In this document: positions 5,094-46,779 of the stretch, piece after piece | Layout of the letters: every line of letters begins with the position of its first letter | Numbering within the stretch: the first letter of the stretch is position 1 | IMG/VR virus record: IMGVR_UViG_3300035670_000119 | Span: 1 to 64,000 of that record | DNA length: 64,000 nt | DNA from: a virus | Direction: 5' to 3' (one strand) | The notes under the pieces: generated by a model | Seen by the model: the letters and a program-made list of their open reading frames with translations, nothing else | Told to the model about the DNA's origin: nothing | Database searches by the model: none | Program-made: the position numbers and the translations under genes

Positions 5094-5282
5094 ATGGACA
5101 TTACTGTCGGCATGGGTGAGTGGATGAATAGTCTCATGAGTCGCATGACAAGTGCGGCAGATGGGGACTGTTTTTATCTGCCCACACTCATGCACCTCCA
5201 TGCTTACAACTTGCTAAAGGAGAGCTGTTTCCCAGATAAAAACTTTAAAGTAGCCGTAGAAAAGACTGTTTTAAGCAAATGA
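5094..5282 (+). CDS. hypothetical protein
   Basis: Stop overlaps primase start; TAGGAT box upstream. Confidence 0.6.
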   Translation: MDITVGMGEWMNSLMSRMTSAADGDCFYLPTLMHLHAYNLLKESCFPDKNFKVAVEKTVLSK

Positions 5283-7921
5283 CGCAAAAGCAATACGCTG
5301 TTAAGCCAGGTGAAATTCGCCTTGATCTTCTCCCTATTGACTGGCCCTTCACACCATTAGGCGGTAAAAAAGATCCGTATGTCATTGGCTGGCAAAAGAA
5401 ACCTTTTAGTGCCGATGAGATCGAAAAAGAAATTCTGTCAGGTGACTGCAAGGCGGTTGGTCTCCATGGGGGTCCTGTCTTCAATCATCCCTATGGTTTG
5501 GTTTGGGTTGATGTGGATGGAGCAAGCATCTACAAACTTGTGGAAGAAATCTCTGGTCTTCCGTTCAACAATGCACTTCCTCCAACTCTCACCATTCTGA
5601 GTGGTAAACCCGGACGCGAACGCAAGCTATATCGTGTTGAAAAGAAAAAACACGATGCTTTCCTGCGTAATAAGTACGTTTGGCATAGTAAGGAAGTAGC
5701 CGAAGAAAAACTTGAAATCCTTTGGAAGCGGCACCAAGGGGTATTGATGGGTCTACATCCAGAGACTAAAGGTTACTTCACCGCAGAAGGTCAGGGTTTC
5801 GAGTGGGTTAATCGTCTACCAGAGATGCCAGCTTGGTTGCTGAATGGCATCATCAATAAAAACGTACAGCAAGGTAAACCGCCACAAGAAATTACGCGGC
5901 GGGTAACAGCAGGCAGTGTTGTCCAATCAATAACTGGACAAGAACGGGAAATCCAAAACGCAAAGGAAGCGGCTTGGGCATTACCTCCTGAAGCTGCAGA
6001 CGACTACGATCTTTGGATCATTGTTGGACAGACGCTTCATTCAGTTGATGAATCGCTACTGGATGAGTGGGATGCTTGGTCCAGGCAATCGGAAAAGTAT
6101 CAAGAGGGTGAGTGTCACAGGCGTTGGCTTTCCTTTACGAAGGGTGGTGGCCGCACGGCTGGGACTCTTTTCCACATGGCAAAGGAGAATGGTTGGTCTC
6201 CTTCTCAGGACTATCGTGCGTTTGGTGTTGATGATGAGACACTGGAGCATGTTTCAAAACTGGTTGAACAAATTGACGAGGATTTAAAACAAATGGCATC
6301 TGTTCCAGCGGCGGTTGAGAAAGATAAAGCTGAGGCTTGGAGTAATACGCACCAAATGCTGGCGCAGAAAACAAGCAAGAAAAAAGAAGAAAAGGAAGAT
6401 AAGCGGCTTTCATCGGATGTGATTGCGGATCGTGTGTTCGACATGTATACCGGCAATCTCCGGTACAGTCAACCTCATGGTCAGTTTTTCTTATATGACC
6501 AGCGGAAAGGATTATGGGAGCCTTTGACCAAGGTTGAGATGCTTGGGAGCTTGCGAGAAAAACTCAAAACCCTTGTCACCATAGAAAACGACAAGTTCAA
6601 AGGGTTCAGCACGAACCTTATGAATGACATCTACTCGCAACTGCAATCTATCATTCCTTTTGATGAGTGGTACGACGGCTCCAGGTATCTGCTGTTTACC
6701 AATGGGGTCTTGGATGTTGAGACCAAGGAGCTGATGGATTTCCGCCGGGATCTTTATCTGACGCAGCAAATGCCCTACGACTATGATCCTGCTGCTACAT
6801 GTGAAGAAATTGTTAAGTGGCTGAAGCACACGCAGCATGACAGCTACCAGCGGGCACAGGTTCTTCGTGCCTGGCTGAGGGCAACACTACTCGGTCGCCA
6901 TGAAATTCAGAAGTTTGTTGAAATCGTGGGACCCGGTAAGTCTGGTAAATCAACCTATGCAAACCTTGCTGTTGCACTGGTTGGTAAGCAGAATACTTAC
7001 TCAACGGACTTTGAAAACCTGGAGAAGAACCGTTTTGAGGCGGCAAGTTACATGGGTAAGAAGCTGCTTCTCTTCCAGGATGCAGATCGATGGGGTGGTT
7101 CTGTCTCCAAACTGAAAGCAATCACGGGTGGTGACTGGATTCGCTCGGAACGTAAGTATCAAACTGAAAGTCAAGATCCATTCCAGTACCACGGAATGGT
7201 CATGATTACAGCTAATGAAGCTATCCAGTCTACCGACTACACATCTGGTCTTGCCCGTCGCCGTCTGACTATTCCCTTTGATCGTCCCTTTGCCGGTGGC
7301 CAAGCAGAACAAAAGGAACTAATTAAGTTCGACAACAAAGGTAACCCGCAAGGTGTCTTTGCTCCTCTTCTGGCTGGTCTCGTCAACTGGTTACTGGATA
7401 TGACAGAGGAGGACATGCGTTCCTATCTCATGGAAACTGGTAAGAATGTCTCGTTCTTCCAGCGGTATGAGAAGACGCAAAGCCTGCGCTCTAATCCACT
7501 ACTGGACTGGATGGACCATAAAGTTGTCTTTGATCCGAACGTCAGCTCTCCCGTTGGCTTCTGTAAGGTGCAACCGGGCGGTGGTTCCGGTTACTACGAC
7601 AACTGGGACAAATGGTTGTACGCAAGCTATGCAGAATTCTGCCGCAGCTGCAATGTCGGCATCATGTCGCGTGGTCGTTTTGAACCCCTATTCCTGGACA
7701 TCTGTCGCCACCAGCTAAAGATCAATGTCTACGGCGTTAAGAACAGTAAGGGACTGCGCATCATCAATGCTGTTGTCCGTGACTCAAATAAAACGCAGTA
7801 TGAAAACTATCCCTCCATTGTTGAGGTCGCGGCTAATCCTGAAAAATACAGCGAATTCTATGGGGCCTGCTTATCAACAACTACCGATGAGATAATGGAT
7901 GAAAATGCAACAGACATGTGA
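5279..7921 (+). CDS. primase-helicase (prim-pol + PriCT-2 + D5_N + SF3 helicase, P4/D5 family)
   Basis: N-terminal VDVDG; PriCT-2 (DYDLWIIVGQTLH...WDAWS...RWLSF); FTNGVLD; Walker A GPGKSGKST; LKAITGGD; ITANE. Confidence 0.9.
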   Translation: MTQKQYAVKPGEIRLDLLPIDWPFTPLGGKKDPYVIGWQKKPFSADEIEKEILSGDCKAVGLHGGPVFNHPYGLVWVDVDGASIYKLVEEISGLPFNNALPPTLTILSGKPGRERKLYRVEKKKHDAFLRNKYVWHSKEVAEEKLEILWKRHQGVLMGLHPETKGYFTAEGQGFEWVNRLPEMPAWLLNGIINKNVQQGKPPQEITRRVTAGSVVQSITGQEREIQNAKEAAWALPPEAADDYDLWIIVGQTLHSVDESLLDEWDAWSRQSEKYQEGECHRRWLSFTKGGGRTAGTLFHMAKENGWSPSQDYRAFGVDDETLEHVSKLVEQIDEDLKQMASVPAAVEKDKAEAWSNTHQMLAQKTSKKKEEKEDKRLSSDVIADRVFDMYTGNLRYSQPHGQFFLYDQRKGLWEPLTKVEMLGSLREKLKTLVTIENDKFKGFSTNLMNDIYSQLQSIIPFDEWYDGSRYLLFTNGVLDVETKELMDFRRDLYLTQQMPYDYDPAATCEEIVKWLKHTQHDSYQRAQVLRAWLRATLLGRHEIQKFVEIVGPGKSGKSTYANLAVALVGKQNTYSTDFENLEKNRFEAASYMGKKLLLFQDADRWGGSVSKLKAITGGDWIRSERKYQTESQDPFQYHGMVMITANEAIQSTDYTSGLARRRLTIPFDRPFAGGQAEQKELIKFDNKGNPQGVFAPLLAGLVNWLLDMTEEDMRSYLMETGKNVSFFQRYEKTQSLRSNPLLDWMDHKVVFDPNVSSPVGFCKVQPGGGSGYYDNWDKWLYASYAEFCRSCNVGIMSRGRFEPLFLDICRHQLKINVYGVKNSKGLRIINAVVRDSNKTQYENYPSIVEVAANPEKYSEFYGACLSTTTDEIMDENATDM

Positions 7922-8277
7922 GCAACGGACGCCATCTCATCTTGGATCTCTATGACTGTAATCCAGAGATCCTTAATGATTATGAGGAGCTTCAGCGATT
8001 GCTAGAGGCTTCTCTTGTGATGGCGAAAGCTACAATCTTGCGCATTATTGGTGAAAAATTTGAGCCACAAGGCGTGACACTATTGGCATTACTGGCCGAA
8101 TCCCATGCATCCATTCACACCTGGCCTGAGATTGGATACTGTGCAATTGATCTCTATACCTGTGGCGACACTACGCAGACACACAAAGCTGCAGAGTTTC
8201 TTAAAAAGAAACTGAACGCTAAAACATCAGAAGAAAGAGAGTTGACACGTTCAATAACTCCTCTTGTTTCGGTATAG
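7918..8277 (+). CDS. speD: S-adenosylmethionine decarboxylase proenzyme
   Basis: GRHLILDLYDC...FEPQGVT...LAESHASIHTWPE...DLYTCG, with the E-S self-cleavage site. Confidence 0.95.
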   Translation: MSNGRHLILDLYDCNPEILNDYEELQRLLEASLVMAKATILRIIGEKFEPQGVTLLALLAESHASIHTWPEIGYCAIDLYTCGDTTQTHKAAEFLKKKLNAKTSEERELTRSITPLVSV

Positions 8278-8302: not shown

Positions 8303-9595
8303 ATGAGTAAAAAGACAAAGATTTTGTGGTGTGGTGACATCGTCGCCATGACTGGCTTCGCACGCGTCACCGAAAACGTCATCTATCGCCTGAAGGATGA
8401 CTTCGAGATTGTTGTCCTCGGCCACAACTGGTGGGGTGACCCGTGCGATCAACAGAAAGATTTCAAGATGTATCCGTCGTCCAACCGGTTCCAGACGGCG
8501 CCCTTTGGTGAGCAACGCATTCGAGAGATAGTAGAAAAAGAAGAACCGGATATCGTTTTCTCGATTAACGATATGTGGATTATCAATGAGCAATACCGGC
8601 AAATCGAGGATCTACACAGGGCGGGTAGGTTCAAGTTCGTTGGTTACGCCCCAATGGACTCGTATGGGTGGATTGGCTGCCTTGCGGATACCGCCAACAA
8701 CTGGGACTCCATCATTTCCTATACGGAATTTGGTGCTCACGAATTTGTAAAAGGTGGCATCAATAAACCGATCGCCGTCATCCCCCACGGCGTTACGCCT
8801 GGTCAGTTCTATCCCAAGGACAAGGCGGAATGTCGTCGCAAGCTGGGTCTCGATGAAGACCTTTTCATCGTGTTCAACGGAAACAGGAATCAGTTCCGTA
8901 AGCGGATTGACATCACCATCAAGGCATTTGCCGAGTTTGCGGTTGGGCGCCCTGAGACCCGTCTGTACCTCCACATGGGCATGAAGGACCAAGGCTGGGA
9001 TGTGATGAATATCTTCGGCAGGGAAATGTCAAGGATGGGTCTGGATCCCAACGGGCGCATCATCATGACAGCACAGACGGAAGGGCCGCCGAACGTATCC
9101 GTGGACATGCTCAACACCATCTATAACGCCTGTGATGTGGGCATCAATACCTGCAAAGGTGAGGGCTGGGGTCTTGTCAACTTTGAACACGCTGCATGTG
9201 GTGTGCCACAGGTGGTGCCTGACCATACGTCATGCAAGGAGATCTTTGAGGGCTATGGCGAGCTGATCCGCTGCGACCACGTTGATGTGGATACCAATTA
9301 CGGACGTGAGATGCCTTGCCCCTCTGTTGAGCACCTCGTGGAAATCCTGGACCAGCTCTACACATTTCCTGAGATATGCGACAAGGTTGGGCAGCAGTGC
9401 TACCGGCGGGCTACTGATCCTCAATTCTCATGGGACACAGTTGCGTCTCAGTTTGGTGGCATCTTTGAGGATGTGATGAACCAGGTGGATCACTCAGTCC
9501 AACCTGAGATCAATGTTGAGATTGGTGAGAAGCCCAAAGCACGTAAGAAGAAAGGTAAACCGATGCGTCGTGAGCTGGCAAGTGCCGTAAAGTAA
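8303..9595 (+). CDS. glycosyltransferase (GT-B, family 4-like)
   Basis: TGFARV, IPHGV, NRNQFRKRID and EGWGLVNFE (ExxGxxxxE) motifs. Confidence 0.88.
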   Translation: MSKKTKILWCGDIVAMTGFARVTENVIYRLKDDFEIVVLGHNWWGDPCDQQKDFKMYPSSNRFQTAPFGEQRIREIVEKEEPDIVFSINDMWIINEQYRQIEDLHRAGRFKFVGYAPMDSYGWIGCLADTANNWDSIISYTEFGAHEFVKGGINKPIAVIPHGVTPGQFYPKDKAECRRKLGLDEDLFIVFNGNRNQFRKRIDITIKAFAEFAVGRPETRLYLHMGMKDQGWDVMNIFGREMSRMGLDPNGRIIMTAQTEGPPNVSVDMLNTIYNACDVGINTCKGEGWGLVNFEHAACGVPQVVPDHTSCKEIFEGYGELIRCDHVDVDTNYGREMPCPSVEHLVEILDQLYTFPEICDKVGQQCYRRATDPQFSWDTVASQFGGIFEDVMNQVDHSVQPEINVEIGEKPKARKKKGKPMRRELASAVK

Positions 9596-9617
9596 GCGGG
9601 CGACAAATGGGGAGACC

Positions 9618-9648
9618 GGCCTCTGCTGAAAAGCAGGGGCTTTTTTTG
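9618..9648 (+). terminator. intrinsic terminator
   Basis: GCCTCTGCT-gaaa-AGCAGGGGC followed by T7. Confidence 0.8.
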
Positions 9649-9678
9649 TTGCGTGGTGATACAAAACTAGGGAACAAC

Positions 9679-9888
9679 GGTCGGACTTTGGTCGGACTTT
9701 CCGACTTTGGGGGTATTTCTATCTTTAATCACACGAGAGCCCATACACTTTGGGGGGTTAAAGTGTATGGGTAGCAGGATCACGTTCTCGGCTTGGTCTC
9801 ACGGTAAGAAACCCTTACACTTTGACCCCCCGAAATGTAAGGGGAGTTTTTAGAATAAAGGTGAAACCGGGGGCAAAGTCGGAAAGTC
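9679..9888. repeat. symmetric dyad element (candidate replication origin)
   Basis: Perfect 15-bp inverted repeat 9695-9709/9874-9888; mirror hairpins 9740-9771 and 9812-9843; tandem GGTCGGACTTT at 9679-9700. Confidence 0.8.
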
Positions 9889-9917
9889 TGCCCTCCCCCT
9901 CCCATCTATTTCAATTC

Positions 9918-10634
9918 ATGGCAAACATCCCCAAAAAGATCGCATCCCTGGTAAAGGAGCACGACTCTTTCCGTCATGTACCCAATACCGAGCGGCTTAG
10001 TACTGATGAACTAACTGCAAACGGTCTTTACAGGGGCTATCCCTGCCCCCATGGACATGACATCCGCCTGCTTGACAACCACTCCTGCTATCACTGCGCC
10101 TGCAAGATCAGAGACAACATCTGTGGCTTTGACGTGAACTACATGCAGGAGGAGTACAAACGCAAGTACGCGGACCTTTGGAGCCAGATTGCCGTTGGTG
10201 ATCCCAGTGAGTGCTGGGAGGCGCCAGGGCTGACGCAGAAACGCATCTGTTTGCCCTCCTACAGGTCGCTGTACGCCAGGGACAAGTCAACCAATGTCAC
10301 CGCCCACAAGGCGATTTACCAATGTGCCTGGGGGGACGTGGGTGCGTTGTTCGTGACGAGAGTATGTGGGAACAAAACGTGTCTCAACCCTCTCCATTTG
10401 GTCTCAAGCTGGAATCGCTTGTTCCCTCCCAGCGTGATCAGCCCCTTTGACTACGCGTTCCAGCCCGAAAAGCTAATGCAATATCAACAGGTGCAAGACG
10501 TAAACCAACTCAAAGTATTACGCGAACGTTACTACAAGTGCACTATTCAGAACCCTTTGGTTAACCAAAACAACTCGGATTATGATAGTGAATATACACA
10601 GTATTACCAATCCGAATGGCAAGAAACCAGTTGA
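9918..10634 (+). CDS. Zn-binding HNH/His-Me-finger-like protein
   Basis: CPHGH...CYHC; ECW; AHKAIY...VTRVCGNKTCLNPLHL. Confidence 0.65.
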   Translation: MANIPKKIASLVKEHDSFRHVPNTERLSTDELTANGLYRGYPCPHGHDIRLLDNHSCYHCACKIRDNICGFDVNYMQEEYKRKYADLWSQIAVGDPSECWEAPGLTQKRICLPSYRSLYARDKSTNVTAHKAIYQCAWGDVGALFVTRVCGNKTCLNPLHLVSSWNRLFPPSVISPFDYAFQPEKLMQYQQVQDVNQLKVLRERYYKCTIQNPLVNQNNSDYDSEYTQYYQSEWQETS

Positions 10635-31200: not shown

Positions 31201-31838
31201 CCAGTAACTCCGGTGGTTCCTTGGGGACCAGTGGGACCTGCAATGCCTGTAGCACCTGTAGGACCTGCTACTCCCGTAGGACCGGTTGTTCCCTGTGGGC
31301 CGGTAGCACCTTGAATACCAGTAGATCCAGTAGGACCGGTCGGTCCTTGAGCACCAGTGGGACCAGTTGTTCCCTGGGCACCTGTAGGACCAGTAGCGCC
31401 AGTAGCCCCGGTAACACCTGTTGCTCCCCCAGGATCACCTGCTGGTCCCGTAGGACCAATCATCGCGTAAACTTTTTCAAGGCCACTGACGTCATAGACG
31501 TGCCAATTGCCTTCCTGATCTAAAACTAATTCTTCTCCAGCTGCGAGCGTACCTTCCCAGACGGTACTAACGGTCGTGCCATCAGTATGCTGAACGTCTA
31601 ATGTGTTGGAGACAGATGCAGATTCGTTTTTAAAATAAAGTGTTCTTACGTTGCGCTGAATATTCTCGTCGGGAGACTCAACAATTGTCGTTGTTGTAGC
31701 AGAAGAAATAACAGTATTTTTGCGTTCAGGATTGATAACGCCACTATCGTTATCAACGTAGGAAGCGTGTACCTCTAGCGACGCCGCACTAGAAGTAACG
31801 ACCTGAACCAAGTCTGTAGTCGACCCAAGAATTAACAC
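28227..31838 (-). CDS. collagen-like fibre protein
   Basis: Three long G-X-T tracts (GAT/GPT) separated by two related globular domains. Confidence 0.88.
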
Positions 31839-31875
31839 TGTCTTTCACCCAATGCTTCTATTTTAAAACAAATTA

Positions 31876-33546
31876 TTAAGTTCCTGGTTTTTCACCAAGT
31901 GATGGGCTATAGGCCGCACCATTCTTGTCGTACATGGTGAACCCACTGATTTTAATATACGTCAAAGGAATATTGAAAAGACGTTGCAACATTGGTTGCA
32001 TATGCTGAGCTTGACAGTTGTAAGGCGGAACATCCATATAGGAAAACGCTTCGGTGGATAGTTTGTGCAATCGTTTGTCTTGTTCTTTTTGCGTTTGCTC
32101 AACCAAGTTCTGTTCCCAGGCCGCCATGCTGCCCGCGCCAACCGGAAAGTCGGAAGGCTCCGGCGGGAACACATCGTCCTGAAAACGCATTGCGTAAATG
32201 TGTTTGCAGTAACGTAACTCGTCTAGCACTGGCGTCCAGAAATCACTCAAGGATGTTATCTCAATTTGAGGTATGGCGTTTGCATCAGTTTGTATGGTTC
32301 GGGAAGCGTAATCGTTATAAGAAGGCATACCTTCTGCTGTAGAACCACTTAGTCCTGGATTGGAAGTAGATCGAGTGTACTGTGCGCCAAATTCACTGTA
32401 AACACCTGGGTTGTCCCTGGTAGCCAGGAGATTGACAATGTTTTCAGTTGTTACGGTATCGGGGAGAATAAACTCTTCCCCTGGGGCAATAATCTGAAGA
32501 ATACGGTCAACATCAGCATCTGTCATCAGAGCATTGTCGACTACCCCCGCATTCTTCAGGATCTCATAACGACCAGGCTTTACGCTAGCGATAGAAGAAC
32601 GTGGGAATGCGCGTTTATTGCTGGCGCCTAGATTCATCATGTAGCTGTATTGCCGATGTGTAAAATCTTGGCAAGTACAGCAGTATCTCGGACCTGTAAT
32701 GAAATAGCGCCCAATAGCGGGTGGCCTGGTGGCAGGAGTTACCAGGGTTCTATCAGGTGTTGCCTCAACAGACCCCGCTTTTTTAAACGTAAGAACACCT
32801 GTTTCTTCATCTGTATCTACCAGGACAGCCTGGACGTATCCATATCTCTTCTGTGTAGAAGGATCGATTGTATCTCGGTCAATGATTGTACCGTCTTTGG
32901 ATAAGATGCGATCCTCTAAAACCTCACCATTAAGCGCCTTTAAGCCTTCAAGTCCTGATCCGAGGTCTACATACAACGGCGGCGGCAACTTGTTACCTTT
33001 CGACCAAACCCCGTTTAATTTGACGTACCAATAATCGGCATCCTCCGTAACCGAACCGATATATGCATCAATGTTTCTTGTTTGTTTTGCTTCTTCATCA
33101 AACCACTGACCCGGATCTTCATAGTCGTAGAGACCATGGTCGAATGAATATTTGTTTAAGAGAGCAATGTACGATTTTAATTTGTCAAAGCGAACGCTTC
33201 CCGGCGTTTTCTTCCCAGCCCAGTGGACGCGGAACTCTTTACTGCGCGTTGGAAATCCCTGGAAATAACCAAGGATATCTGGGTACTCCGTTCCTTTAGG
33301 TAAAAATCCCTCAGAGAATGGAACGGTGTACTTAAAGCGGTAAGAAAGATTGTTGGTATACAGAGATGAAGTTGCTATTTCGTAACCTTTTCTCCACCTG
33401 GCCCAGGCTGATTCCCTGTTGGCTGCGTACAAAGAATCTGGTACAGAGCCAGGGGAAAACTCTGTCGTTATCGGTTTAACGCCATTGACCGAAAAGGCTC
33501 TCGTATCGCTGAAATTGCCAAAAGAGCCTCCACTCTTTCTAGCCAT
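31876..33546 (-). CDS. hypothetical protein with SWIM-type Zn finger
   Basis: YCCTCQDF...YCKHIYA. Confidence 0.65.
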   Translation of the reverse strand: MARKSGGSFGNFSDTRAFSVNGVKPITTEFSPGSVPDSLYAANRESAWARWRKGYEIATSSLYTNNLSYRFKYTVPFSEGFLPKGTEYPDILGYFQGFPTRSKEFRVHWAGKKTPGSVRFDKLKSYIALLNKYSFDHGLYDYEDPGQWFDEEAKQTRNIDAYIGSVTEDADYWYVKLNGVWSKGNKLPPPLYVDLGSGLEGLKALNGEVLEDRILSKDGTIIDRDTIDPSTQKRYGYVQAVLVDTDEETGVLTFKKAGSVEATPDRTLVTPATRPPAIGRYFITGPRYCCTCQDFTHRQYSYMMNLGASNKRAFPRSSIASVKPGRYEILKNAGVVDNALMTDADVDRILQIIAPGEEFILPDTVTTENIVNLLATRDNPGVYSEFGAQYTRSTSNPGLSGSTAEGMPSYNDYASRTIQTDANAIPQIEITSLSDFWTPVLDELRYCKHIYAMRFQDDVFPPEPSDFPVGAGSMAAWEQNLVEQTQKEQDKRLHKLSTEAFSYMDVPPYNCQAQHMQPMLQRLFNIPLTYIKISGFTMYDKNGAAYSPSLGEKPGT

Positions 33547-33548
33547 CT

Positions 33549-34331
33549 CTAGAAGAATCCGCCTTGAGCAATGACGTGAGCACCAGGGTTGTAGCCGGAA
33601 ATGTTCGGGCCGTCTGGGAAAACACCCACATAAATGCGGTCGCCACGTTCCAGGTAGATGCCCTTATTGCGTAGAGGTGCAGTCGACCCAAGACCAGTGG
33701 TAACACCTGCTTGCGGCATGGGGGTTGCTAATTGCGGCAGGAGATCCGAGCAGTCAACTGAACCGCTATTGGCAGGAATTGTTTTGGCGAACAATACCCG
33801 GTAATCACCTGATGCAGGAATAGGAGTCGTTGTGTTACGCGTGTGGTAGAAAACAAAAGTAACGGCGGGCTGATTCCCGTAATCCACACCGTTAAACGTA
33901 AAACCGCTAGAGGTGCCGCCTGAGTAGTGGAAAGCGGTATTTACGCCGGTAAGCGTCGTTGCTCCAGTATAGGTGTAATAGCCGATACCGCTGGCAGGAG
34001 TGGTGGCGGTAATAACGCCAGTGGAGGTGACGTTAACGATTTGTCCGCTTACCAGGGAGATGACAGTTCCCGAGGTCGTCGTATTGACAATGTAGTCTGC
34101 TTCCCTATAGAAGTCATTGCGTGTGATCGTAATTGAATCAACAACGCCACCATTATTATTGTCTTCTTCAAGGGCAGCGTCCATGTCTACGAGAATAGAC
34201 GGAGCCTGACCACCCTGCACAAATAACGTATTCGTGGTAGCGTTACCAACGGTCTGAGTCGTTACTCGTACCGTATCGAATAGCGGACGGTCAACCAGAA
34301 GTGGCTGTTTATTAGTGCTAGTGGACGCCAA
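33549..34331 (-). CDS. putative virion structural protein
   Basis: Thr/Gly-rich beta protein, 260 aa. Confidence 0.65.
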   Translation of the reverse strand: MASTSTNKQPLLVDRPLFDTVRVTTQTVGNATTNTLFVQGGQAPSILVDMDAALEEDNNNGGVVDSITITRNDFYREADYIVNTTTSGTVISLVSGQIVNVTSTGVITATTPASGIGYYTYTGATTLTGVNTAFHYSGGTSSGFTFNGVDYGNQPAVTFVFYHTRNTTTPIPASGDYRVLFAKTIPANSGSVDCSDLLPQLATPMPQAGVTTGLGSTAPLRNKGIYLERGDRIYVGVFPDGPNISGYNPGAHVIAQGGFF

Positions 34332-34367
34332 TGTTCTACTTCCTGTTTCTTTACATTATAGTCTTTA

Positions 34368-35090
34368 TCAGCCAATAGATCCAAACGCCTTTAAGAAGTT
34401 AGAGAAAGAAGATGTAGGTGTTTCACGCCTTTGCGATAAAAGCGGAGAATTAATTTGATTCATTAATAGTGCCATCAGCTCAGGATTATCCTGGCCAGCA
34501 ATCGCAATATTCTCACCGGAAGAGGCGGGGGAAGTTGTCGCAATAGGTTCTTGCGCATCCAATACTTCGCTTCGGGGGCCAAGTTTTTGCCACCAGGGCT
34601 TTTGTGCTTTCTTTCCGGTTTCGCTGAATAATGTATTCTCAGTGAAGTCAGGGGTTAATCCTTTTTTACGTATTTCTGCTGGTGTTAAATACTGGAGACC
34701 ACCACCCAATCTGACGGGAATTAAATTATCGGGATACTTCATGAGAAGCCCCTGTTTGTTCAGGTACGAGGTTGATCGAAAATCACCAACCCCACCAAGT
34801 TGATTTGCAGTGTTTGCTAAAAGCCTTAAGCCTTCAGGGCTGTTGTAAAACTGTTTTGCAAGACCGCCTGTCTCTTTGGTAGGTTTCTTTAAAACTGCAT
34901 ATTGACTTGGATTCATCCAAGATTGCCAGTTGCTTCCATAGCCAGGCATGTGGAAGCGATTAAGGATACTAGCAAAAGTACCCGGCTTTGCCCCGTATTT
35001 TGGGTCCCTGGCTTCCAGGGTGGCAACACGATATGCGGTATTTAAAAAATCTTGCGGGAATATAGAAGCAAGACCTGCGGGAGTAGGCAT
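34368..35090 (-). CDS. putative virion protein, possible SleB-like cell-wall hydrolase
   Basis: VATLEA...ASILNR...PSQY resembles SleB/Hydrolase_2 motifs (weak). Confidence 0.5.
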   Translation of the reverse strand: MPTPAGLASIFPQDFLNTAYRVATLEARDPKYGAKPGTFASILNRFHMPGYGSNWQSWMNPSQYAVLKKPTKETGGLAKQFYNSPEGLRLLANTANQLGGVGDFRSTSYLNKQGLLMKYPDNLIPVRLGGGLQYLTPAEIRKKGLTPDFTENTLFSETGKKAQKPWWQKLGPRSEVLDAQEPIATTSPASSGENIAIAGQDNPELMALLMNQINSPLLSQRRETPTSSFSNFLKAFGSIG

Positions 35091-35095
35091 TGGTT

Positions 35096-36604
35096 TTACA
35101 TCTGTGGGTTTCTCGCCTGGAGTTTCATCAACTCCCGGTAAGCAAGGCCAGGATTCTGACGCGTCCAATCCATCAGAGCCTGGTCGCTCATCCCGGCAAA
35201 AGCGCCCAGTTCCTTCAAGCGACGCTGAAGCTCTCCACCCTGCTCCATGCTCCTACCCAGTTGCTGCTGGCCCGCATAGAAGGAAGGTAAGGAAACACCT
35301 GCAGGAGCAGCATACTGCTGAGCAGCATTAAGTACTTCTTGAGAGAGCGCGCGTTCTTGAACATTTTGACGTTGTGCGGGAGCACCGGCCCCGTTAGACA
35401 CAACTCCGGGAGGCACACGAGGCGCAAGGGGAGGAGGTGTCAGTTGTCCGGCTTGCAGCCCTGGATCCAGAAGAGCTGGAGGGGCTGGTGCTTCAGGAGG
35501 CTGTAAACTTCCGGAAGCAATACCCACGTTAGCACCGTACAATTTTCTAAAGCTTTCTGGAGACTGGAAACCATAGTTCCGGCCAGCCCATACACGGCCC
35601 TGTGCATCGCGAATTGATGCGTCACCACCAAATGGTCGTGTGTTTTGTGCTAGAGACTGACGCAAGTAAGTGGCTTCTTTTTCGTCCTCAACACCGGCTG
35701 CAGAAGGGAAAAGGGCATCTACTGCTCCATAAGCTGCTAAACCTCCGCCAACAGTTGTTAATAAACCTGGCGTTGTTCCAGCAATGCCCAGGCTCTGTGC
35801 TAACCGTGCGCCGGCACTGATGCCTGGCATGGGATTTGCGGCATCAAGAAGATTGGCGGGATTCAGTGGATTAAAAACCTGACCAACTTTACCAAGTAGG
35901 GTTGTCGGCGTCCTTGTTGCTAAGGGGTTAATGGCTGTTGGTATCCGTCCTTGAAGATTGCGAAAAATTCCTTTTGCTGTATCGACACCGCCCTGCAACA
36001 TGTTTTGGGGTTCACGCGCAAACATAGAAGTTTTTGCGGTGATTTGTCCCAGAGGGCTAGATGGTCCTAGCATCCCTTCAGACGGCATCTGGAAAGGAAG
36101 GGGAGGCTGGACCTTCTTTAATTGCTCAACAGGGATGCCAAGTTTTTTTGCCAACTGCTCGGCAGATCCTGTCAATCCGGAAGCACGCCGTAAAGCGTAA
36201 TCAATGTTATAAGGGTTGTTTCCAGGGAGAGGCGTACTTGCTGGTGTCGTTAAGACGGGAGCTTGCGGACGTTGTCCAGGTAAGCCTGGAGCCCTAACTA
36301 CACCACCTGCATTGACTGCTCCCGCTGGACGAGCAGGGGGCTGAGCTGCAGCGCGAACAAGCGTAGTTTTTGCTTGGCTTCTTGCGGCTTCTTTTGCAGT
36401 CCCTGGAGCCATCTGTGAAATACCACTCAGTCGATCCAGGAACCCTGTCGTGAGTCCGCCCCAATTTACATTCTGCGGGATAGCACGAGAGAGTACGTCA
36501 CCTGCTGCTCTTTGCAGGAATTGATAGTTACGTGGGTCTGCGGCTTGAGCTGCACCACGTCCAATGAAGTTATAAAGAAAACCTGCGGGGGACTTAGGAG
36601 CCAT
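35096..36604 (-). CDS. Gly/Ala/Pro-rich putative internal virion protein
   Basis: About 500 aa, low complexity. Confidence 0.65.
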   Translation of the reverse strand: MAPKSPAGFLYNFIGRGAAQAADPRNYQFLQRAAGDVLSRAIPQNVNWGGLTTGFLDRLSGISQMAPGTAKEAARSQAKTTLVRAAAQPPARPAGAVNAGGVVRAPGLPGQRPQAPVLTTPASTPLPGNNPYNIDYALRRASGLTGSAEQLAKKLGIPVEQLKKVQPPLPFQMPSEGMLGPSSPLGQITAKTSMFAREPQNMLQGGVDTAKGIFRNLQGRIPTAINPLATRTPTTLLGKVGQVFNPLNPANLLDAANPMPGISAGARLAQSLGIAGTTPGLLTTVGGGLAAYGAVDALFPSAAGVEDEKEATYLRQSLAQNTRPFGGDASIRDAQGRVWAGRNYGFQSPESFRKLYGANVGIASGSLQPPEAPAPPALLDPGLQAGQLTPPPLAPRVPPGVVSNGAGAPAQRQNVQERALSQEVLNAAQQYAAPAGVSLPSFYAGQQQLGRSMEQGGELQRRLKELGAFAGMSDQALMDWTRQNPGLAYRELMKLQARNPQM

Positions 36605-37065
36605 TAGCGCCAAACCTCATGAAGATAAATACGAGAACCAACTGCAGTATCAGCTGGCCCAGGTAAAGCCTGAATAAATTCTGCACCTGAGCGTTCATAC
36701 CGATACCGAGCCTGGAAAGGATCTTTGTAGTTAGGAACGTAAAGAATTCCAGCTAAACGATTTGTCTCGTAAAGATAGATTTCGTCCCAAACTTTTAAAG
36801 CTTCTTTTGCATTACTAGAGCGAATCGTGCGATCCACATCACCAGCAATGCTTTCAAGTCTAGTAGAAGGCGATGTTGCGACTTCTGTTTTCTTTTCGGC
36901 CGTATCACAGCGGCCCATTTGAATAACAAGTTTGTCGTAGAAGTATGAATCGGGAACCGTATTCATTGCTTCTTCTAGACGAGCATAGTCACCCGCCGGC
37001 ACGGAAACCGTGAAGTAGCCCAAATGATATCGGACTCTGCTTTTATCAAAATCGCTGAGCTGCAC
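36604..37065 (-). CDS. putative head completion/adaptor protein
   Basis: Position after capsid; VRYHLGY N-terminus; function inferred. Confidence 0.5.
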   Translation of the reverse strand: MQLSDFDKSRVRYHLGYFTVSVPAGDYARLEEAMNTVPDSYFYDKLVIQMGRCDTAEKKTEVATSPSTRLESIAGDVDRTIRSSNAKEALKVWDEIYLYETNRLAGILYVPNYKDPFQARYRYERSGAEFIQALPGPADTAVGSRIYLHEVWR

Positions 37066-37104
37066 AGCTTACTTCCGTATGTTTTTAATTATAAATGACC
37101 TTTA

Positions 37105-37815
37105 CTAACTCAGTTGGCCAGACAAGGGGTTGTCTAGTACTCCAGTGGGAACACTTCCCATTAGCTCTTGGAGTTCCGCGAAAGGATCTTGTTTCTTGCC
37201 TCTAACTTGTTGCAGTATTTGTTGTGCCATTTGATTTGAAATATAGTCTTTAAGAAATTTTTGCTGCCTTGCTTCTTCTACCCGAGGATCCGGAGGAAGA
37301 ACTGGTGCGGGTGGAGGGGTGCCACCGGCTTCTGCTCTTGCTGTTGACGCTTGTTGTGGTAGTTCATTTAAGTGCATGAACTCCAAAGTAAATGGACGAT
37401 TATCCAGTGTCCTGCTGGTGAATCGGGACATATTGCCCGCAGCGCCCACATTGGCCAACGGTGTTACTGATCCCTCGCCCAAAACACGCAACATCGTGTT
37501 TGCAGGCAAATCATAATCCTCGCCACGATGAGGAACATTCCTTGCACCGGTAACAGGATGTACAGCGCGTACTCCGAAGGGATCTATTAATTTAACGCCC
37601 GGATGCAAACCATATTGACTTTGACCAAGATTTTGGAATAAAGATTCCCAGGTTTCGCTTCCTGGCCTTTTGAATTGAATTCGTGTACCTGCAATTGATC
37701 TCCCCGCCTGGCTCAATGGCATGTGTTTGCCATCGACAATAAACCCCAGGTGAAGATGAGGGCCTGTAACACCGCCGGTGCTACCTGATTTACCAACGTA
37801 ACTTGCAGCTGACAT
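37105..37815 (-). CDS. M23/LytM peptidase, circularly permuted
   Basis: GKSGSTG...TGPHLHL near the N-terminus; HRGED downstream; later FMHL. Confidence 0.75.
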   Translation of the reverse strand: MSAASYVGKSGSTGGVTGPHLHLGFIVDGKHMPLSQAGRSIAGTRIQFKRPGSETWESLFQNLGQSQYGLHPGVKLIDPFGVRAVHPVTGARNVPHRGEDYDLPANTMLRVLGEGSVTPLANVGAAGNMSRFTSRTLDNRPFTLEFMHLNELPQQASTARAEAGGTPPPAPVLPPDPRVEEARQQKFLKDYISNQMAQQILQQVRGKKQDPFAELQELMGSVPTGVLDNPLSGQLS

Positions 37816-37841
37816 ATTGGTTTTCTTTTTATTTTAAGACT

Positions 37842-37866
37842 AAAAAACCCCCGGTTTCCCGAGGGT
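37842..37866 (-). terminator. intrinsic terminator after capsid operon
   Basis: Minus strand ACCCTCGG-gaaa-CCGGGGGT followed by a T run. Confidence 0.8.
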
Positions 37867-37882
37867 ATAAAGGATGAGTAAA

Positions 37883-38311
37883 TCAGACGCGAATTAAATT
37901 AGCTGCAAAAACCGAATCCCAATCAACCCGTTTGATTTGTTTTAGCTGTTCAAGATTGTTGAATCTTTCACCCGATAAGGACATTTGAAGATCTTTAATC
38001 TCACGAGCCGTTTTCAAACCAATGCCTTTAATATGATCCGCAATCATCTGAGCAGTGGCTGAGTTCACATTTAGGCGAGTATCCGGTGGAAAAGTACGAG
38101 GCTCTTCCTGTGCTGCTTTATCTTTTACCTGAAGAGTTTTAACCTTTTTGGTTGCTTCTTCGTCGGGCTGGATCTCAGTTTTGTAAACGGTAAAAAGGCG
38201 ACCGTCCTGATCTTCGACCATGAACCAATCGCCTTGATCCCATTCGCTTACAACTTTGACGCGAGCGCCCGTTTTTTTGTGCTGGTAAAGCATTGCCGGA
38301 ATAGTTGTCAT
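37883..38311 (-). CDS. helix-hairpin-helix (ComEA-like) DNA-binding protein
   Basis: LNVNSATAQMI...KGIGLKTAREI...FNNLEQL. Confidence 0.75.
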   Translation of the reverse strand: MTTIPAMLYQHKKTGARVKVVSEWDQGDWFMVEDQDGRLFTVYKTEIQPDEEATKKVKTLQVKDKAAQEEPRTFPPDTRLNVNSATAQMIADHIKGIGLKTAREIKDLQMSLSGERFNNLEQLKQIKRVDWDSVFAANLIRV

Positions 38312-38346
38312 AAGACCAGTGGTAACCTGGTCTTAGTTTAACTTAC

Positions 38347-39138
38347 TCAGCTAACAGTGCGGCCCAGGAGATAGCCTTCGATGTCTTCGTAGCCAGCGGC
38401 TTCATCGGGCTGGAGATAACACACTTCAACCACGAAGTAACCAGTGCGATTGGCATTGGCATCACCACTGGAGATGTACCAACCACCAGAAGTGCTGGTC
38501 GAAGTACGCGAACCGCGAGCTTGCACGGTATAGGTGGTGGAAGAGGTGATCTGCTTGTAGATGTTGTTCACAGCTACACCGGCGGCACCAGTGGCGGTCA
38601 GGAAGGGCTGAGCGCTATAGGCAGCGGTACCAGCGGCGAAGAAGATTTCACCGGACTGGTCACCAGAGGTGGTGGAGGTGAGGTCAGCCTGGGACACGGC
38701 AGCGCCTGCATCACCAGAAGACACCAGACCAGGACCAAAGGTAATCACGTTACCAGTGGCGGCATACACACCAGAAGCAACGCGGCCATCGCCCCAGCCA
38801 GAAGCAACGGAGATGGTGGCGCGATACACGTAGGCAGGGATAGCGCTGCTACCAGAGATCACCATGCCGGTGATGTCGGTGCGGGTGTCGTCATTCCGAT
38901 AGGGGGAAGGAACGATCACGCTACCGGAGGCAACGGCACCAGCACCAGAGGTAGTGGTCACGGCCACATAACCACGTTGCTGGAAGTAACGGTAACCAGG
39001 AACGGCCAGCACTGAAGTGGGGCCACCCTTGGAACCATCATTGGTACCGCTGTCGTCGGTATCAATGTTCTTGTACCAACCGTTCAGAGGCTCCGCCCAG
39101 TTACCTGGGTAGATTTTTTTGGCGGACAAATAGGTCAT
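38347..39138 (-). CDS. putative capsid decoration/minor capsid protein
   Basis: Directly after MCP; same strong codon bias. Confidence 0.6.
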   Translation of the reverse strand: MTYLSAKKIYPGNWAEPLNGWYKNIDTDDSGTNDGSKGGPTSVLAVPGYRYFQQRGYVAVTTTSGAGAVASGSVIVPSPYRNDDTRTDITGMVISGSSAIPAYVYRATISVASGWGDGRVASGVYAATGNVITFGPGLVSSGDAGAAVSQADLTSTTSGDQSGEIFFAAGTAAYSAQPFLTATGAAGVAVNNIYKQITSSTTYTVQARGSRTSTSTSGGWYISSGDANANRTGYFVVEVCYLQPDEAAGYEDIEGYLLGRTVS

Positions 39139-39174
39139 TTATCTTTTCCTATGTTGTAGGTTTATGTTTAATTA

Positions 39175-40338
39175 TCAGACAGTGCCGTCATCTTGCACAA
39201 AGCTGTATGCGGTGGTGACGAAATCTTTGTTCAGGATTTCGAAACCAGCGTACAGTTGCCAAATGAGAATAATGAAACGGCTGAAGTCGTCGTTGTTGTT
39301 GATGAGCACCTGAGCGTTAGGACCGCCGATACCAACACCAACAGACTGAGGACCGAAGAAGTAACCTTGGGCCACTTCCTTAGAAGCATAGCTGGAACCA
39401 CCATCAAAGGAAGCAGAAACGTTCTTGGTCGGGAAGTTGGTCGACTCGAAGAACTTAACGCCTTCAAACTGGACGCCAGTAGGCATCACAGGTTCACCAG
39501 CCAGGAAGTAACCCTGACCAGCCTGGGGACCCATGTAGAAGCTGGCGTTGTTAGGCATCATGGGGTTGCCCATGTACATGCCTTGGCCAGGATTGCCGCT
39601 ATAACGGGCGATCTCACGGAAGTCAGGATCACGACGCAGGTGCATCATGAAGGTGGGATCGCAGATGCAGCGATACAGACCATCACCAAAGGTGGGGACG
39701 TTGCGCTTGCGGAGATCCTTCACAAGGCTCAGCAGGTCGGTACGCACCTGGAACTGCTGAACTTCATTACCATACTCGGTGGAGGTGTAGGACACACGAC
39801 CAGAAGAGTCCTTGGTTTTACCGCCAGCGAAGTAGTAACCACCTTGAGTGGTAGAAGCAGCACCATTGGCTTCGGCTTTGGCGAGTTCATCAATGAACAC
39901 GCGGTCGCGCCAACGGCGATAGTCGTCGAGCAGCGTCAGGCTACCGATCGACTGGTGGAACATGTTGAGGTTGCCACTATCCAGCAGAAGGCGCTGAGCA
40001 GTGATCAGGGTCTCACGTGCAATCTTGAAGGTGCTAGGCTGGGTAGGATCGCCCGGATCTGCAGGACCAGTGTACTCTTTCAGTACAACAAGCACCTTCT
40101 CTTTGGTGATGTTGCGGCTGTTGGCAGTACCGATAGTTTGGTCAGCAATACGCTCGCGGCTGTCCTTAGTACCAGGGGTACCCCAGAACTTATAGCGATC
40201 TAACTGAACGGTTTGACCGGGCTGACGAGTGAAGTCATGAACGACCACGGGCTCGACCGCCATTTCTGCGATATACGCAGGGTGGGGGCGGTAGAGTTCC
40301 GCACCCAAAATCTTTGGAAAGTCGTTATCAATGAACAC
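39175..40338 (-). CDS. major capsid protein
   Basis: 387 aa; PGQTVQL motif; follows scaffold and portal; strong codon bias with antisense shadow ORF. Confidence 0.8.
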   Translation of the reverse strand: MFIDNDFPKILGAELYRPHPAYIAEMAVEPVVVHDFTRQPGQTVQLDRYKFWGTPGTKDSRERIADQTIGTANSRNITKEKVLVVLKEYTGPADPGDPTQPSTFKIARETLITAQRLLLDSGNLNMFHQSIGSLTLLDDYRRWRDRVFIDELAKAEANGAASTTQGGYYFAGGKTKDSSGRVSYTSTEYGNEVQQFQVRTDLLSLVKDLRKRNVPTFGDGLYRCICDPTFMMHLRRDPDFREIARYSGNPGQGMYMGNPMMPNNASFYMGPQAGQGYFLAGEPVMPTGVQFEGVKFFESTNFPTKNVSASFDGGSSYASKEVAQGYFFGPQSVGVGIGGPNAQVLINNNDDFSRFIILIWQLYAGFEILNKDFVTTAYSFVQDDGTV

Positions 40339-40443
40339 TTTGTTTTATCCTCCAGTGTCGCAGGAAGTGTTTTTATCGGATGAAAGATTCAGACATTGTT
40401 ATGTCTTATCTAACACAAATTTTAGCAGTTGGTAATTTACTTA

Positions 40444-41064
40444 TTACATGTACTGCTTGATAGGCATGTTGCTAGAGCCATAAGACTCAGGATCAATAGC
40501 TTGTTGTGCAGCCATCTGCATGGCAGCATCTTGATTCATGCCTGGAATGCCAACCAATTGACCTGCGTTTGCAAGGCCACCGCCAATCATTCCACCAAAC
40601 CCGCCAGCGGCGGTTAAGCCGATTGGAATACCAGCAGTATTAATAAGAGCCTGAGACCGACGAAGGCCAGTCTTAAATTGATCTCTTATTTGGTCTGGAT
40701 CGCCACCTTGAGCGTTTAACTGCCGAAGCATATCGCGAACGTATTCTGCGTTCTCAATTTCAGAAGCAGACATACGAGCTTTGCGTGCAGCTGCTCCTGG
40801 ATTGTTCATGACAACAGCACCGAGGTCGCTCATTGCTTTTACAGCGCGGCCACGTAAGCCAGGAATTTGTGCACCAAGTAGAGCACCAGCTCCGCCAGCG
40901 CCAAGTGCCTCTAATCCAAGGCGGCCAGCACCTTCGTCTTGAGCTTCACCAGAAACCAGGTTTCCTAATGTAGCAAGGCCGGCGGCACCGAGGCCGCCAG
41001 CCACTGCAGAAGCAATGGGATTCCTGCTGATTGTGTTAGCGTACTTACCAGCAAGTTTAATCAT
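40444..41064 (-). CDS. Gly/Ala-rich hypothetical protein
   Basis: 206 aa between scaffold and MCP. Confidence 0.65.
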   Translation of the reverse strand: MIKLAGKYANTISRNPIASAVAGGLGAAGLATLGNLVSGEAQDEGAGRLGLEALGAGGAGALLGAQIPGLRGRAVKAMSDLGAVVMNNPGAAARKARMSASEIENAEYVRDMLRQLNAQGGDPDQIRDQFKTGLRRSQALINTAGIPIGLTAAGGFGGMIGGGLANAGQLVGIPGMNQDAAMQMAAQQAIDPESYGSSNMPIKQYM

Positions 41065-41068
41065 CGCT

Positions 41069-42031
41069 TCACTCCATCACAAACAGTTTGTTTGCAACGA
41101 CTTGAGGCTGGGCTTGGTTCAGGAGGCGCCAGGCTTGTGCAGGATCCACATCCATTTGCTGCTTGAAGGAACCCCAGAAGTTTTCAGGTTGCTGAGGAGC
41201 GGAAGCTGCGGGAGGAGCAGGGAACTGTGGCATGTAAGGATTCACAGCCTCAGTGCGGTAACCAGGGGTTTCCAGGTCGGCCTCACTTTCGTACACGGGG
41301 TACGGGCCTTCAGGACCAAAGAACCGCAAAGTGTAATCACTGAGAACGTCAGGGTTCGTCAGGATCTCGTTGTAAGCCAGGTTCTCTTGGTGCTCGTTAA
41401 CCGCGAACTCGGCATACCCTTCGATCAGGCCTTTGGCTTGGGTGCCCCAGGCAACAGCACTATCCAGCATGCCTTCCAGTTGGAGGGCATAGTTGTTCAG
41501 GATGGCAGGTGCTTCAACGCCGTACGCGCTTACCACGTGACGGGTTTCTGGACTCCACTGGAGCAGATCCGCTACGTCCCCCAAGGATTGAACCGAGAAG
41601 GTTTGGGAAGAGCTGGGCGAGGATGTCGGGTTGGCTTGCCAGGTCTGCGGAGCCGATTGTTGCGTAGCTGGGCCTACTTGCTGGCCGTAGTTCGCCGGGG
41701 CGTACTGAGTCGGCGCTACTGATGGTTGACCCTGGAACGGGGATTGAACTGGTGCGCTCAGAAGGCCCACCACTTTGTTGAACGCCGATTCCCACGGATT
41801 GCTCTGAGTCGCCGGTTGGGATTGGGGGGCGTACTGAGTAGGGGCTGATTGGTAGCTGGGGGCTGCCTGCGGTACTGCTTGGGGGTAGCTGGTACCCACC
41901 TGATACGCCACTGGAGCTGCCTGGTAGCTCGCCGGCGCTTGCGCTGGAGCTGGTGCCACGTAGCTGCTCGGAGCCACCGCTGCCGGAACTTGGCTCGTCT
42001 GTGGGATCGATTGGACGGTAGCGTCCTGCAT
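41069..42031 (-). CDS. putative scaffolding protein
   Basis: P/Q/A-rich; AAGGAG Shine-Dalgarno 7 nt before ATG; position after portal. Confidence 0.65.
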   Translation of the reverse strand: MQDATVQSIPQTSQVPAAVAPSSYVAPAPAQAPASYQAAPVAYQVGTSYPQAVPQAAPSYQSAPTQYAPQSQPATQSNPWESAFNKVVGLLSAPVQSPFQGQPSVAPTQYAPANYGQQVGPATQQSAPQTWQANPTSSPSSSQTFSVQSLGDVADLLQWSPETRHVVSAYGVEAPAILNNYALQLEGMLDSAVAWGTQAKGLIEGYAEFAVNEHQENLAYNEILTNPDVLSDYTLRFFGPEGPYPVYESEADLETPGYRTEAVNPYMPQFPAPPAASAPQQPENFWGSFKQQMDVDPAQAWRLLNQAQPQVVANKLFVME

Positions 42032-43778: not shown

Positions 43779-43815
43779 TATCTTGGTCTTTTGTTGAATA
43801 CTAACAAGTTATTTT

Positions 43816-44337
43816 TTAAATTGCACCTGTACCAAGTTCACCCTGCAATCCAGGTCCTTGATAACGCTCAAAATATGGACGAATACCAGGCATCAAGCCC
43901 TCTGGCACCCCATAGGGCCATCGATAATTACGCAACGGATTGGAACGATTATTCATTGTGTAATTCGTAGGGTCGTATGGCAGAAATTGAGTATCTTGCC
44001 GAGTGCGTACATCTCCCGGAATGTCGCTCATGCCGCCATCGCGATTGCCAATAAGCTGTTTCAAAGTTGGTTTGGAGCCAGAGGCAGGTCTGCTTTGCGC
44101 AACTAACATTCCACCAACGTTACCAACTCCCGCCGCGGGCAACTGTGGTTGAAGTGGAAAAGTAAATTGTTTTTCCTCGTATTCTTTGGTCTCCTTTCCG
44201 GGAAGAAGGGGTTTATGCCAAGGCTCTCCACCTTGAATCTTAAAACGCGGATCTAAAAGAGGATTGCCACCCGCAACGGCACCTTGATTACCAACAAAAC
44301 CACCGTATGTGCCGCCGGGTTGTGTAATGTAACGCAT
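43816..44337 (-). CDS. hypothetical protein
   Basis: G/P-rich ORF. Confidence 0.55.
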   Translation of the reverse strand: MRYITQPGGTYGGFVGNQGAVAGGNPLLDPRFKIQGGEPWHKPLLPGKETKEYEEKQFTFPLQPQLPAAGVGNVGGMLVAQSRPASGSKPTLKQLIGNRDGGMSDIPGDVRTRQDTQFLPYDPTNYTMNNRSNPLRNYRWPYGVPEGLMPGIRPYFERYQGPGLQGELGTGAI

Positions 44338-46768: not shown

Positions 46769-46779
46769 GTTCTTATTGT

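Follow-up and report, generated by a model that had tools for sequence, protein, structure and literature searches.

A conserved mirror-symmetric intergenic element in S-EIV1-like cyanophages as a candidate bidirectional replication origin

The window analysed here, a stretch of 64,000 nucleotides (positions 1 to 64,000 of the IMG/VR virus record IMGVR_UViG_3300035670_000119), belongs to an S-EIV1-like cyanophage; the record comprises 85,905 bp in full (G000 in the following), and Synechococcus phage S-EIV1 (record KJ410740.1; also L171) is its sole cultured relative. A rightward gene block that contains the gene of a primase-helicase and has those of an AdoMet decarboxylase (AdoMetDC) and a glycosyltransferase as its final members is closed by a terminator-like hairpin. 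Between this terminator and the following gene, encoding an HNH-endonuclease-like protein, an element of approximately 215 bp is located that is composed of two mirror-image halves (Table 1). The same order (primase-helicase, AdoMet decarboxylase, glycosyltransferase, gap, next gene) is kept in the S-EIV1 annotation. Tentatively, and at slightly less than an even chance, the element is regarded here as the bidirectional replication origin of the phage or as the core of this origin; among the readings considered below this is the best-supported one, its partial support being comparative and analogical in nature.

Table 1. Features of the window at the element and in its gene neighbourhood.
Feature	Position	Strand	Description
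Primase-helicase, 880 aa	5279..7921	+	Prim-Pol, PriCT_2, D5_N, DUF5906/SF3-type ATPase (Pfam)
AdoMet decarboxylase (AdoMetDC)	7918-8277	+	Pfam
GT4-type glycosyltransferase	8303-9595	+	Pfam
Terminator-like hairpin and T-run	9618-9648	+	10-pair stem 9618-9641, then TTTTTTT (consensus scan)
Left arm	9679..9709	+	Three GACTTT (9684-9689, 9695-9700, 9703-9708) within 11-nt and 8-nt repeats
G5 run, T-rich A/T block, conserved tail	9709..9739	+	G5 run 9709-9713; A/T block 9714-9729 (13/16 A/T); conserved CACACGAG tail
Hairpin 1	9740..9771	+	Perfect 12-bp stem, loop GGGGGGTT
Centre, 40 nt	9772..9811	+	Not self-complementary; conserved GGTCTCAC..TAAGAAAC block at 9795-9812
Hairpin 2	9812..9843	+	11/12 positions pair with G-T allowed, loop GACCCCCC
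A-rich A/T block, G5 run	9844..9873	+	A/T block 9847-9866 (15/20 A/T; TAGAAT 9851-9856), then G5 run 9869-9873
Right arm	9874..9893	+	Two inverted GACTTT (9875-9880, 9883-9888); reverse complement of 9690-9709
HNH-endonuclease-like gene, 237 aa	9921..10634	+	PHROG 1872 'endonuclease' 3.8e-12, HNH PHROGs

From its outer end inwards, each half consists of an arm of short repeats, a G5 run, an A/T block and a hairpin. The opposed short repeats, at least two on each side (three GACTTT on the left, two inverted ones on the right), include a pair of perfect 15-nt reverse complements (9695-9709 and 9874-9888), the pairing of which widens to 20 nt at 90% (9690-9709 with 9874-9893); these outer repeats and the pair of hairpins share the centre 9791.5. 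An earlier note, made from the letters of the window alone, had described a 194-bp dyad about this centre with its outer repeats, its two hairpins and the triple GACTTT on the left, and each of these was recovered at the positions given there. The symmetry proved to be wider than first noted: over 50 nt, complementarity between 9723-9772 and 9811-9860 reaches 74%. Of its 32 positions, hairpin 1 shares 27 with hairpin 2 taken as reverse complement and 21 with hairpin 2 read directly. Both G5 runs carry G on the + strand and thus form a true mirror repeat that breaks the reverse-complement symmetry; G5 runs on the same strand at both sides occur in the clade of the window and in several other lineages. 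An open reading frame (ORF) at 9607-9774 and a TTG-extended start at 9822 exist mechanically over the element; the alignment of the relatives displays blocks and indels in this region without a coding-like pattern, and the element is likely to be non-coding.

The dyad is far beyond what chance would give. In an ungapped scan over every centre of the 85,905-bp genome (half-width 113), the centre 9791.5 gave the top score of the genome, with 63 of 113 mirrored positions complementary versus a mean of 28.4 (standard deviation 4.95); the runner-up, with a score of 52, lies in collagen-like repeats near 29 kb. The profile built from the element matches its own reverse strand at E ~2e-24, and the folding of the element as RNA lies beyond chance on both strands (z = -5.7 on the + strand, -5.0 on the - strand). 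The arm and stem motifs do not recur beyond chance elsewhere in the window or in the genome, the element being single-copy; it was not found in 185,579 prokaryote genomes, and a phage collection contained no DNA match to the element region, the downstream protein being matched there by S-EIV1 only.

Conservation in relatives, proposed in the earlier note as a check, was found at several levels of divergence. The element recurs with 75-93% identity in seven further IMG/VR loci, which constitute, together with the window, a close clade of eight sequences; in all eight, the arms and A/T blocks are nearly invariant, while the flanking intergenic sequence is unalignable and the neighbouring protein is only 70-96% identical, which argues for selection on the element as DNA. 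Of 106 distinct related loci, 69 gave a homologous element when a profile was iterated over the region that follows the glycosyltransferase gene; five of the 37 loci without a match were read by eye, and all five contained analogous opposed repeats and palindromes of other sequence. Independently of any alignment, the best dyad of the 6-9-kb locus fell into the gap in 49 of 92 loci versus 9.5 expected from its length, and the 43 loci that failed this ungapped scan include loci in which the symmetry is broken by indels. S-EIV1 possesses a dyad of its own in the same gap (29-nt arms around a 13-bp stem); its element occupies about 7.7-8.0 kb of the S-EIV1 record. In every relative examined, there is one copy of the element per genome at the same syntenic position. 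The S-EIV1-like phages form a lineage that is widespread in fresh and marine waters, and the neighbouring genes are encoded in more than 200 IMG/VR stretches; a literature search whose coverage did not extend to the original S-EIV1 paper yielded no described origin of an S-EIV1-like phage and no description of this element.

Read from 5' to 3', the family layout begins with the terminator (in relatives likewise a G+C-rich hairpin with a T-run, of other sequence), often a GTCTCA-N3-TGAGAC palindrome, the left arm, the T-rich block and hairpin 1; the middle consists of a degenerate copy of the arm in inverted orientation, a palindrome of the GTCTYATGAGAC type at the centre and, in many lineages, a direct arm copy; hairpin 2, the A-rich block and the right arm follow, and then the HNH-like gene or an extra small HNH gene. 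L026 and L060 have one hairpin only. Distant lineages contain T-rich blocks equivalent to the left one and TATATAAAGATAAAA-type blocks homologous to the right A-rich one, and most lineages keep an outer boundary TGCAG...CTGCA. Several lineages carry a separate TATAAT-like box in the stretch from the right arm to the next gene, so that the element is flanked by a terminator on one side and a promoter on the other. The GTCTCA-N3-TGAGAC sequence (6-bp stem and 3-nt loop if extruded) represents a second conserved palindrome type that accompanies the element in most lineages, with sites in the interval between terminator and left arm and in the centre (L026, L060, L069, L137, S-EIV1 at L171:11370-11395, and others). 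The window contains no GTCTCA-N(2-6)-TGAGAC palindrome; its only remnant is the GGTCTCAC..TAAGAAAC block at 9795-9812, which is related to this palindrome of the other lineages.

The arms differ between lineages and match within them. Among 32 arm types (in some of which the search had caught inner palindromes and not the outer arms), a lineage's own left-right arm pairs had a mean score of 14.1 with 27 of 32 reaching at least 10, compared with a mean of 4.9 for cross pairs of arm types, 4.5% of 992 of which reached at least 10: The arms are lineage-specific and yet reverse-complementary to their own partner. Mismatches within the arms were of the transition type in 56 of 174 cases (approximately 33% expected) and without G-U bias, which argues for a constraint at the level of DNA over an RNA helix; the commonest 'mismatch' was G-G (33/174). 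In the hairpins, an ACAY/RTGT core is kept and the outer stem positions change in step, while the cores of 26 distinct hairpins are spaced 10 to 14 nt apart, a variability that fits stem-loops better than a rigid duplex operator; a strict search detected ACAY/RTGT hairpins in only 21 of the 106 regions. Among the close relatives, 95% of cells in the arms are paired, as are 95.2% of those in hairpin 1, where the 7 distinct relatives include one double change from A-U to U-A; in seven of the eight, hairpin 1 resembles hairpin 2 more closely when the latter is reverse-complemented. In L144, both loops have been replaced by another complementary pair with the mirror relation kept; in L007, hairpin 1 is flipped, so that the two hairpins are direct copies with C-rich loops and the complementarity of the loops is lost.

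If the element is the origin, an initiator would bind the opposed arm repeats on duplex DNA, this being either the primase-helicase by way of its conserved parts or a separate specificity factor. The A/T blocks would melt and two SF3-type hexamers would be loaded facing opposite ways; once single-stranded or extruded, both hairpins would offer the same structure on opposite strands and could act as assembly or priming signals for the Prim-Pol domain, from which synthesis would start bidirectionally. We only infer binding, melting, priming and origin activity of the element, from the comparative data and from the systems discussed at the end. The 880-aa primase-helicase is the presumed replication initiator or helicase: It matches the PHROG DNA primase family at 1.6e-80 and the 'primase' of S-EIV1 with 55% identity over 98% of its length, and its residues 445-685 match PDB entry 7OLA (molecule name 'DNA primase', E 1.9e-9). 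We take 7OLA to be the PriRep protein of SaPI5, an assignment made from the topic of a paper on staphylococcal pathogenicity islands (SaPI). The C-terminal residues 690-880 resemble Pox_D5-bearing clusters (Atlas), which is a lead only; a profile of this C-terminus (43 sequences) had no PDB match at E up to 10, and nothing was matched in Pfam at E up to 5. Further replication genes (DNA polymerase A, SSB and ThyX) are located at 68-76 kb of the record.

Several observations weigh against the origin reading. The element lies 1.7 kb and two genes downstream of the primase-helicase stop codon: The earlier note had placed it just downstream of the primase-helicase operon, which is correct in that the element follows the operon terminator and incorrect if understood as adjacency to the primase gene, from which the AdoMetDC and glycosyltransferase genes separate it. 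Neither the 40-nt centre nor the hairpins are A/T-rich, and the two A/T blocks measure just 16 and 20 nt. Sequence searches detected no winged-helix or other DNA-binding domain in the C-terminal region of the primase, and this region is not hypervariable. Local and long-range pairing are equally supported (92.2% versus 91.9% of cells in 7 distinct close sequences), and the start codon of the small HNH gene directly adjoins the right arm in many lineages, a position that would suit a regulatory role as well. GC skew, likewise suggested in the earlier note, was rejected as origin evidence: The base-wise cumulative G-C maximum of G000 falls at 9886 in the right arm and moves to 57957 on detrending, and this coincidence was not reproduced in two complete relatives, S-EIV1 exhibiting a slope change only near its element and G002 no GC-skew signal at its element.

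The comparison of the near-isogenic loci L143 and L152 also counts against a part of this reading. Their primases are 99% identical, their flanks 97% and their downstream HNH-like proteins near-identical, and the 62-71-aa protein upstream of the primase and the protein following the HNH-like one are near-identical as well; in contrast, identity falls to 80% in the elements. The two loci differ at all four arm-core copies and share both hairpins; the cores of L152 are those of L133, the primase of which is 88% identical, and the hairpins and flanks of L152 are those of L143. Arm cores and hairpin types thus assort independently, and nowhere do loci of otherwise 95-100% identity diverge more than over the element and the 5' part of the small HNH gene. 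As the cores differ next to near-identical proteins, the primase-helicase and its neighbours do not appear to read the variable core. The inference of the earlier note, a symmetric loading site for the 880-aa enzyme, is therefore retained in part: A conserved, single-copy, insulated element with the layout of related origins is supported, and the assignment of the 880-aa enzyme as the reader of the outer repeats is not supported, given different cores at all four copies beside 99% identical primases.

A bolder proposal, which we rate as distinctly unlikely, is a re-programmable origin with four lineage-specific cores (forward, reverse, forward, reverse around the two hairpins) that switch in concert between near-isogenic phages, whatever the hairpins and the primase-helicase. 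Such concerted switching would point to a separate origin-specificity factor or to recognition purely through an extruded four-way DNA structure. Comparison of the whole records G001 and G002 gave many divergent small genes without singling out a candidate for the core reader, and eight of these genes had no Pfam match. Were the proposal true, co-infecting cyanophages would have distinct origin identities. By analogy, the HNH nucleases beside the element could drive the diversification of the cores; origin-directed nucleases reportedly act in this manner in another phage-satellite system.

Among the alternatives, a transcriptional control region survives best, although we consider it unlikely; it is compatible with the origin reading, and both may hold. 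The A/T blocks would then be outward-facing -10 regions and the arms and palindromes operators at which one or more phage or host regulators time the downstream HNH-like gene or genes. A TAnnnT-type hexamer is indeed present in the right A/T block of the window (TAGAAT) and of most lineages inspected by eye, some gene always starts 0-100 nt past the right arm, whichever gene this is, the GTCTCA-N3-TGAGAC palindromes are operator-like, and the joint switching of the four arm cores is as expected of the sites of one trans-acting factor. However, a sigma-70 consensus scan found no promoter in 9400-10100, and the A/T-block motif was rejected as a general promoter of the genome (6 matches versus 2.5 expected, 2 of them inside the element). 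The left half faces the terminator and the 3' end of a gene, which leaves the mirror symmetry without an obvious use; the separate box between right arm and gene in several lineages is the better -10 box, and the variable spacing of the hairpins is unsuited to a duplex operator.

A role in recombination or processing appears improbable. It would make the element an invertible segment, a resolution or packaging site, or a target or co-conversion tract of the adjacent HNH nucleases, and hence a selfish cassette in place of a replication element; it would account for the terminal inverted repeats with their widely kept outer boundary, for HNH genes inserted directly beside the element, for the divergence of the element and the adjoining 5' part of the small HNH gene within near-identical loci, and for the independent assortment of arm cores and hairpin types. 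The constancy of copy number and syntenic position in the relatives argues against such a role, and the asymmetric centre has the same orientation in 8/8 close relatives, so that no inverted form was seen; no recombinase was present among the proteins searched, which covered part of the genome, and on the same two grounds an invertible promoter switch (inverton) is not supported. The terminase gene (44.9-46.4 kb of the record) lies 35 kb away, and a protelomerase-type site is ruled out because the centre is not palindromic.

Slightly less probable still is an action as RNA, in which the two halves of a read-through transcript would pair and hide the start of the downstream HNH gene or be cut by RNase III, transcripts begun within the right half escaping this control. 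Such hairpin control has been described for free-standing homing-endonuclease genes of T4-like phages, and the genes downstream of the element are of the HNH type, with the right arm ending at or a few nt from the start codon of the small HNH ORF in many lineages. A single long hairpin is predicted for the entire element as RNA (-98.3 kcal/mol; z = -5.7), but the opposite strand folds about equally well (z = -5.0 on the - strand), and the arm mismatches lack the G-U bias of an RNA helix. Expression was checked on contigs from four RNA-labelled runs, out of twenty runs: The 3' end of the glycosyltransferase gene has contig coverage, and a single contig of depth 2 continues through the terminator to 9697, as would fit read-through; no contig lies on the element beyond 9697, and taken together the contigs count neither way. 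Against the RNA reading, a terminator precedes the element, the arm ends 27 nt before the ATG in the clade of the window and 75-100 nt before the start in S-EIV1 and L026, and the element is equally well conserved where the small HNH gene is absent. Rfam 15 gave no match at gathering scores in the window and none at E up to 1 in 9550-9960; the window contains no tRNA or tmRNA. The kissing-loop RNA named as an alternative in the earlier note is not needed as a separate hypothesis and was dropped, because the complementarity of the loops follows automatically from the overall dyad and is lost in L007.

The HNH-like gene adjoins the element throughout the family, relatives of it being encoded in 114 of 118 candidate IMG/VR stretches. 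Its 237-aa product has no Pfam match; it exhibits an N-terminal Cys/His cluster (CPHGH...CYHC) and, in all sequences seen (window; homologues L143, L152, L148, L133), an HNH-region motif ...TRVCGN..C.NPLH.... Compared with typical HNH motifs, another residue seems to stand in place of the first catalytic His, and judged from its sequence the protein may be a nuclease-dead DNA-binding protein. In most lineages an extra small HNH gene of approximately 108-117 aa is located between the element and this conserved gene (L133, L143, L148, L152, L127, L136 and others; absent from the window), its start codon (GTG, ATG or TTG) abutting the right arm. In the S-EIV1 record, the region KJ410740.1 7462-7725 (L171:11670-11933) is annotated as two tiny ORFs on opposite strands and a shortened coding sequence; since tblastn yields a single continuous homologue of the HNH-like gene there (start L171:11692), the deposited annotation is probably wrong. 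Upstream of the primase-helicase gene, a 62-aa ORF (window 5094-5282) with the motif ...GEW...DGDCF.LPT.MHLHA... is conserved across lineages (57-71 aa); its stop codon overlaps the start of the primase-helicase gene, to which it looks translationally coupled.

Two further observations concern the records themselves. CheckV rates the completeness of G000 at 52%, yet its 85.9 kb exceed the 79.2 kb of the complete S-EIV1 genome and the 82.9 kb of G002 (rated 100%); G000 has no terminal direct repeat of 20-400 nt and is probably near-complete. Between the records G001 and G002 (L177-L184), collinearity is split into two blocks, one reversed (G001 24-26773) and one forward (31759-50216), which points to a rearrangement or to a misassembly in one of the records.

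Short repeats, some of them in inverted pairs, are bound by the primase-helicase or SF3 initiators of phage P4 (ori/crr), SV40 and the papillomaviruses, which load as double hexamers on the core origins; these repeats differ from those of the element in sequence and spacing, and a hairpin pair of its kind is not known from these origins. Repeat clusters beside a homologous primase-helicase gene were also seen in two further phages, LR797314.1 (L185:5114-5291) and Alteromonas phage R9Y2 (L186:2620-3040): In one, the primase-helicase gene is immediately followed by four direct repeats of the TTTGTGCTGTTGG type, 20 nt apart; in the other, an A/T-rich stretch upstream of the operon is surrounded by GTAACG repeats in both orientations.

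Three known designs come closer to the element. According to PMC9371898, SaPI origins contain 6-12 penta- or hexanucleotide iterons right after rep, with at least two per side in opposite directions and an A/T-rich middle, and the protein that binds the iterons is a self-loading helicase, in some islands as a fusion with a primase. The element likewise has opposed sets of short repeats, and it shares in part the position downstream of a primase/helicase gene and the A/T-rich DNA between the sets; the sequence of the repeats is lineage-specific as it is island-specific in SaPI. In contrast to SaPI origins, the repeat sets of the element are 164 bp apart and enclose two hairpins and a centre that is not A/T-rich, its A/T DNA forms two short, distinct blocks, it is set off from the helicase gene by two unrelated genes, and its variable core does not co-vary with the helicase, in which no winged-helix was detected by sequence.

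The second design is that of pRN1 and related Sulfolobus plasmids (ORF904: Prim-Pol/SF3/winged-helix). In PMC4234260, a stem-loop of 100 nt that follows the terminator of the Prim-Pol/SF3 gene is given as the pRN1 origin; it is conserved in structure and not in sequence, and similar stem-loops are mentioned 3' of such genes in phages. A large dyad after the terminator of the replication operon, the stem of which is poorly conserved in sequence while its ability to pair is kept, is common to both systems. Whereas pRN1 is described there with a single stem-loop directly after the gene, the element is about twice as long and nested, and it differs further by its arms, its two inner palindromes, its unpaired centre and its strongly conserved sequence blocks.

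The third design is the oriV of RSF1010 and the IncQ plasmids, in which, following PMC8567376 and PMC4234260, two similar hairpins on opposite strands occur with iterons nearby; the ssiA and ssiB signals are two 40-nt hairpin-forming inverted repeats on opposite strands (PMC8567376) that are used by the plasmid primase RepB' once a helicase exposes them. The likeness is one of layout; RSF1010 has iterons on one side only and three separate proteins, and in L007 the hairpins of the element are direct copies and not mirrored. As the most economical reading, and by analogy, the element may be regarded as a bidirectional origin that unites all three designs: iterons, stem-loop and mirrored priming hairpins. 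If it is indeed an origin, it would provide a defined cis element for building replicons and for studying the loading of a fused Prim-Pol/SF3 enzyme, its 32 arm types would represent a natural series of variants for dissecting specificity, and the logic of iteron, stem-loop and mirrored priming hairpin, known separately from SaPI, pRN1 and RSF1010, would be united in one element.

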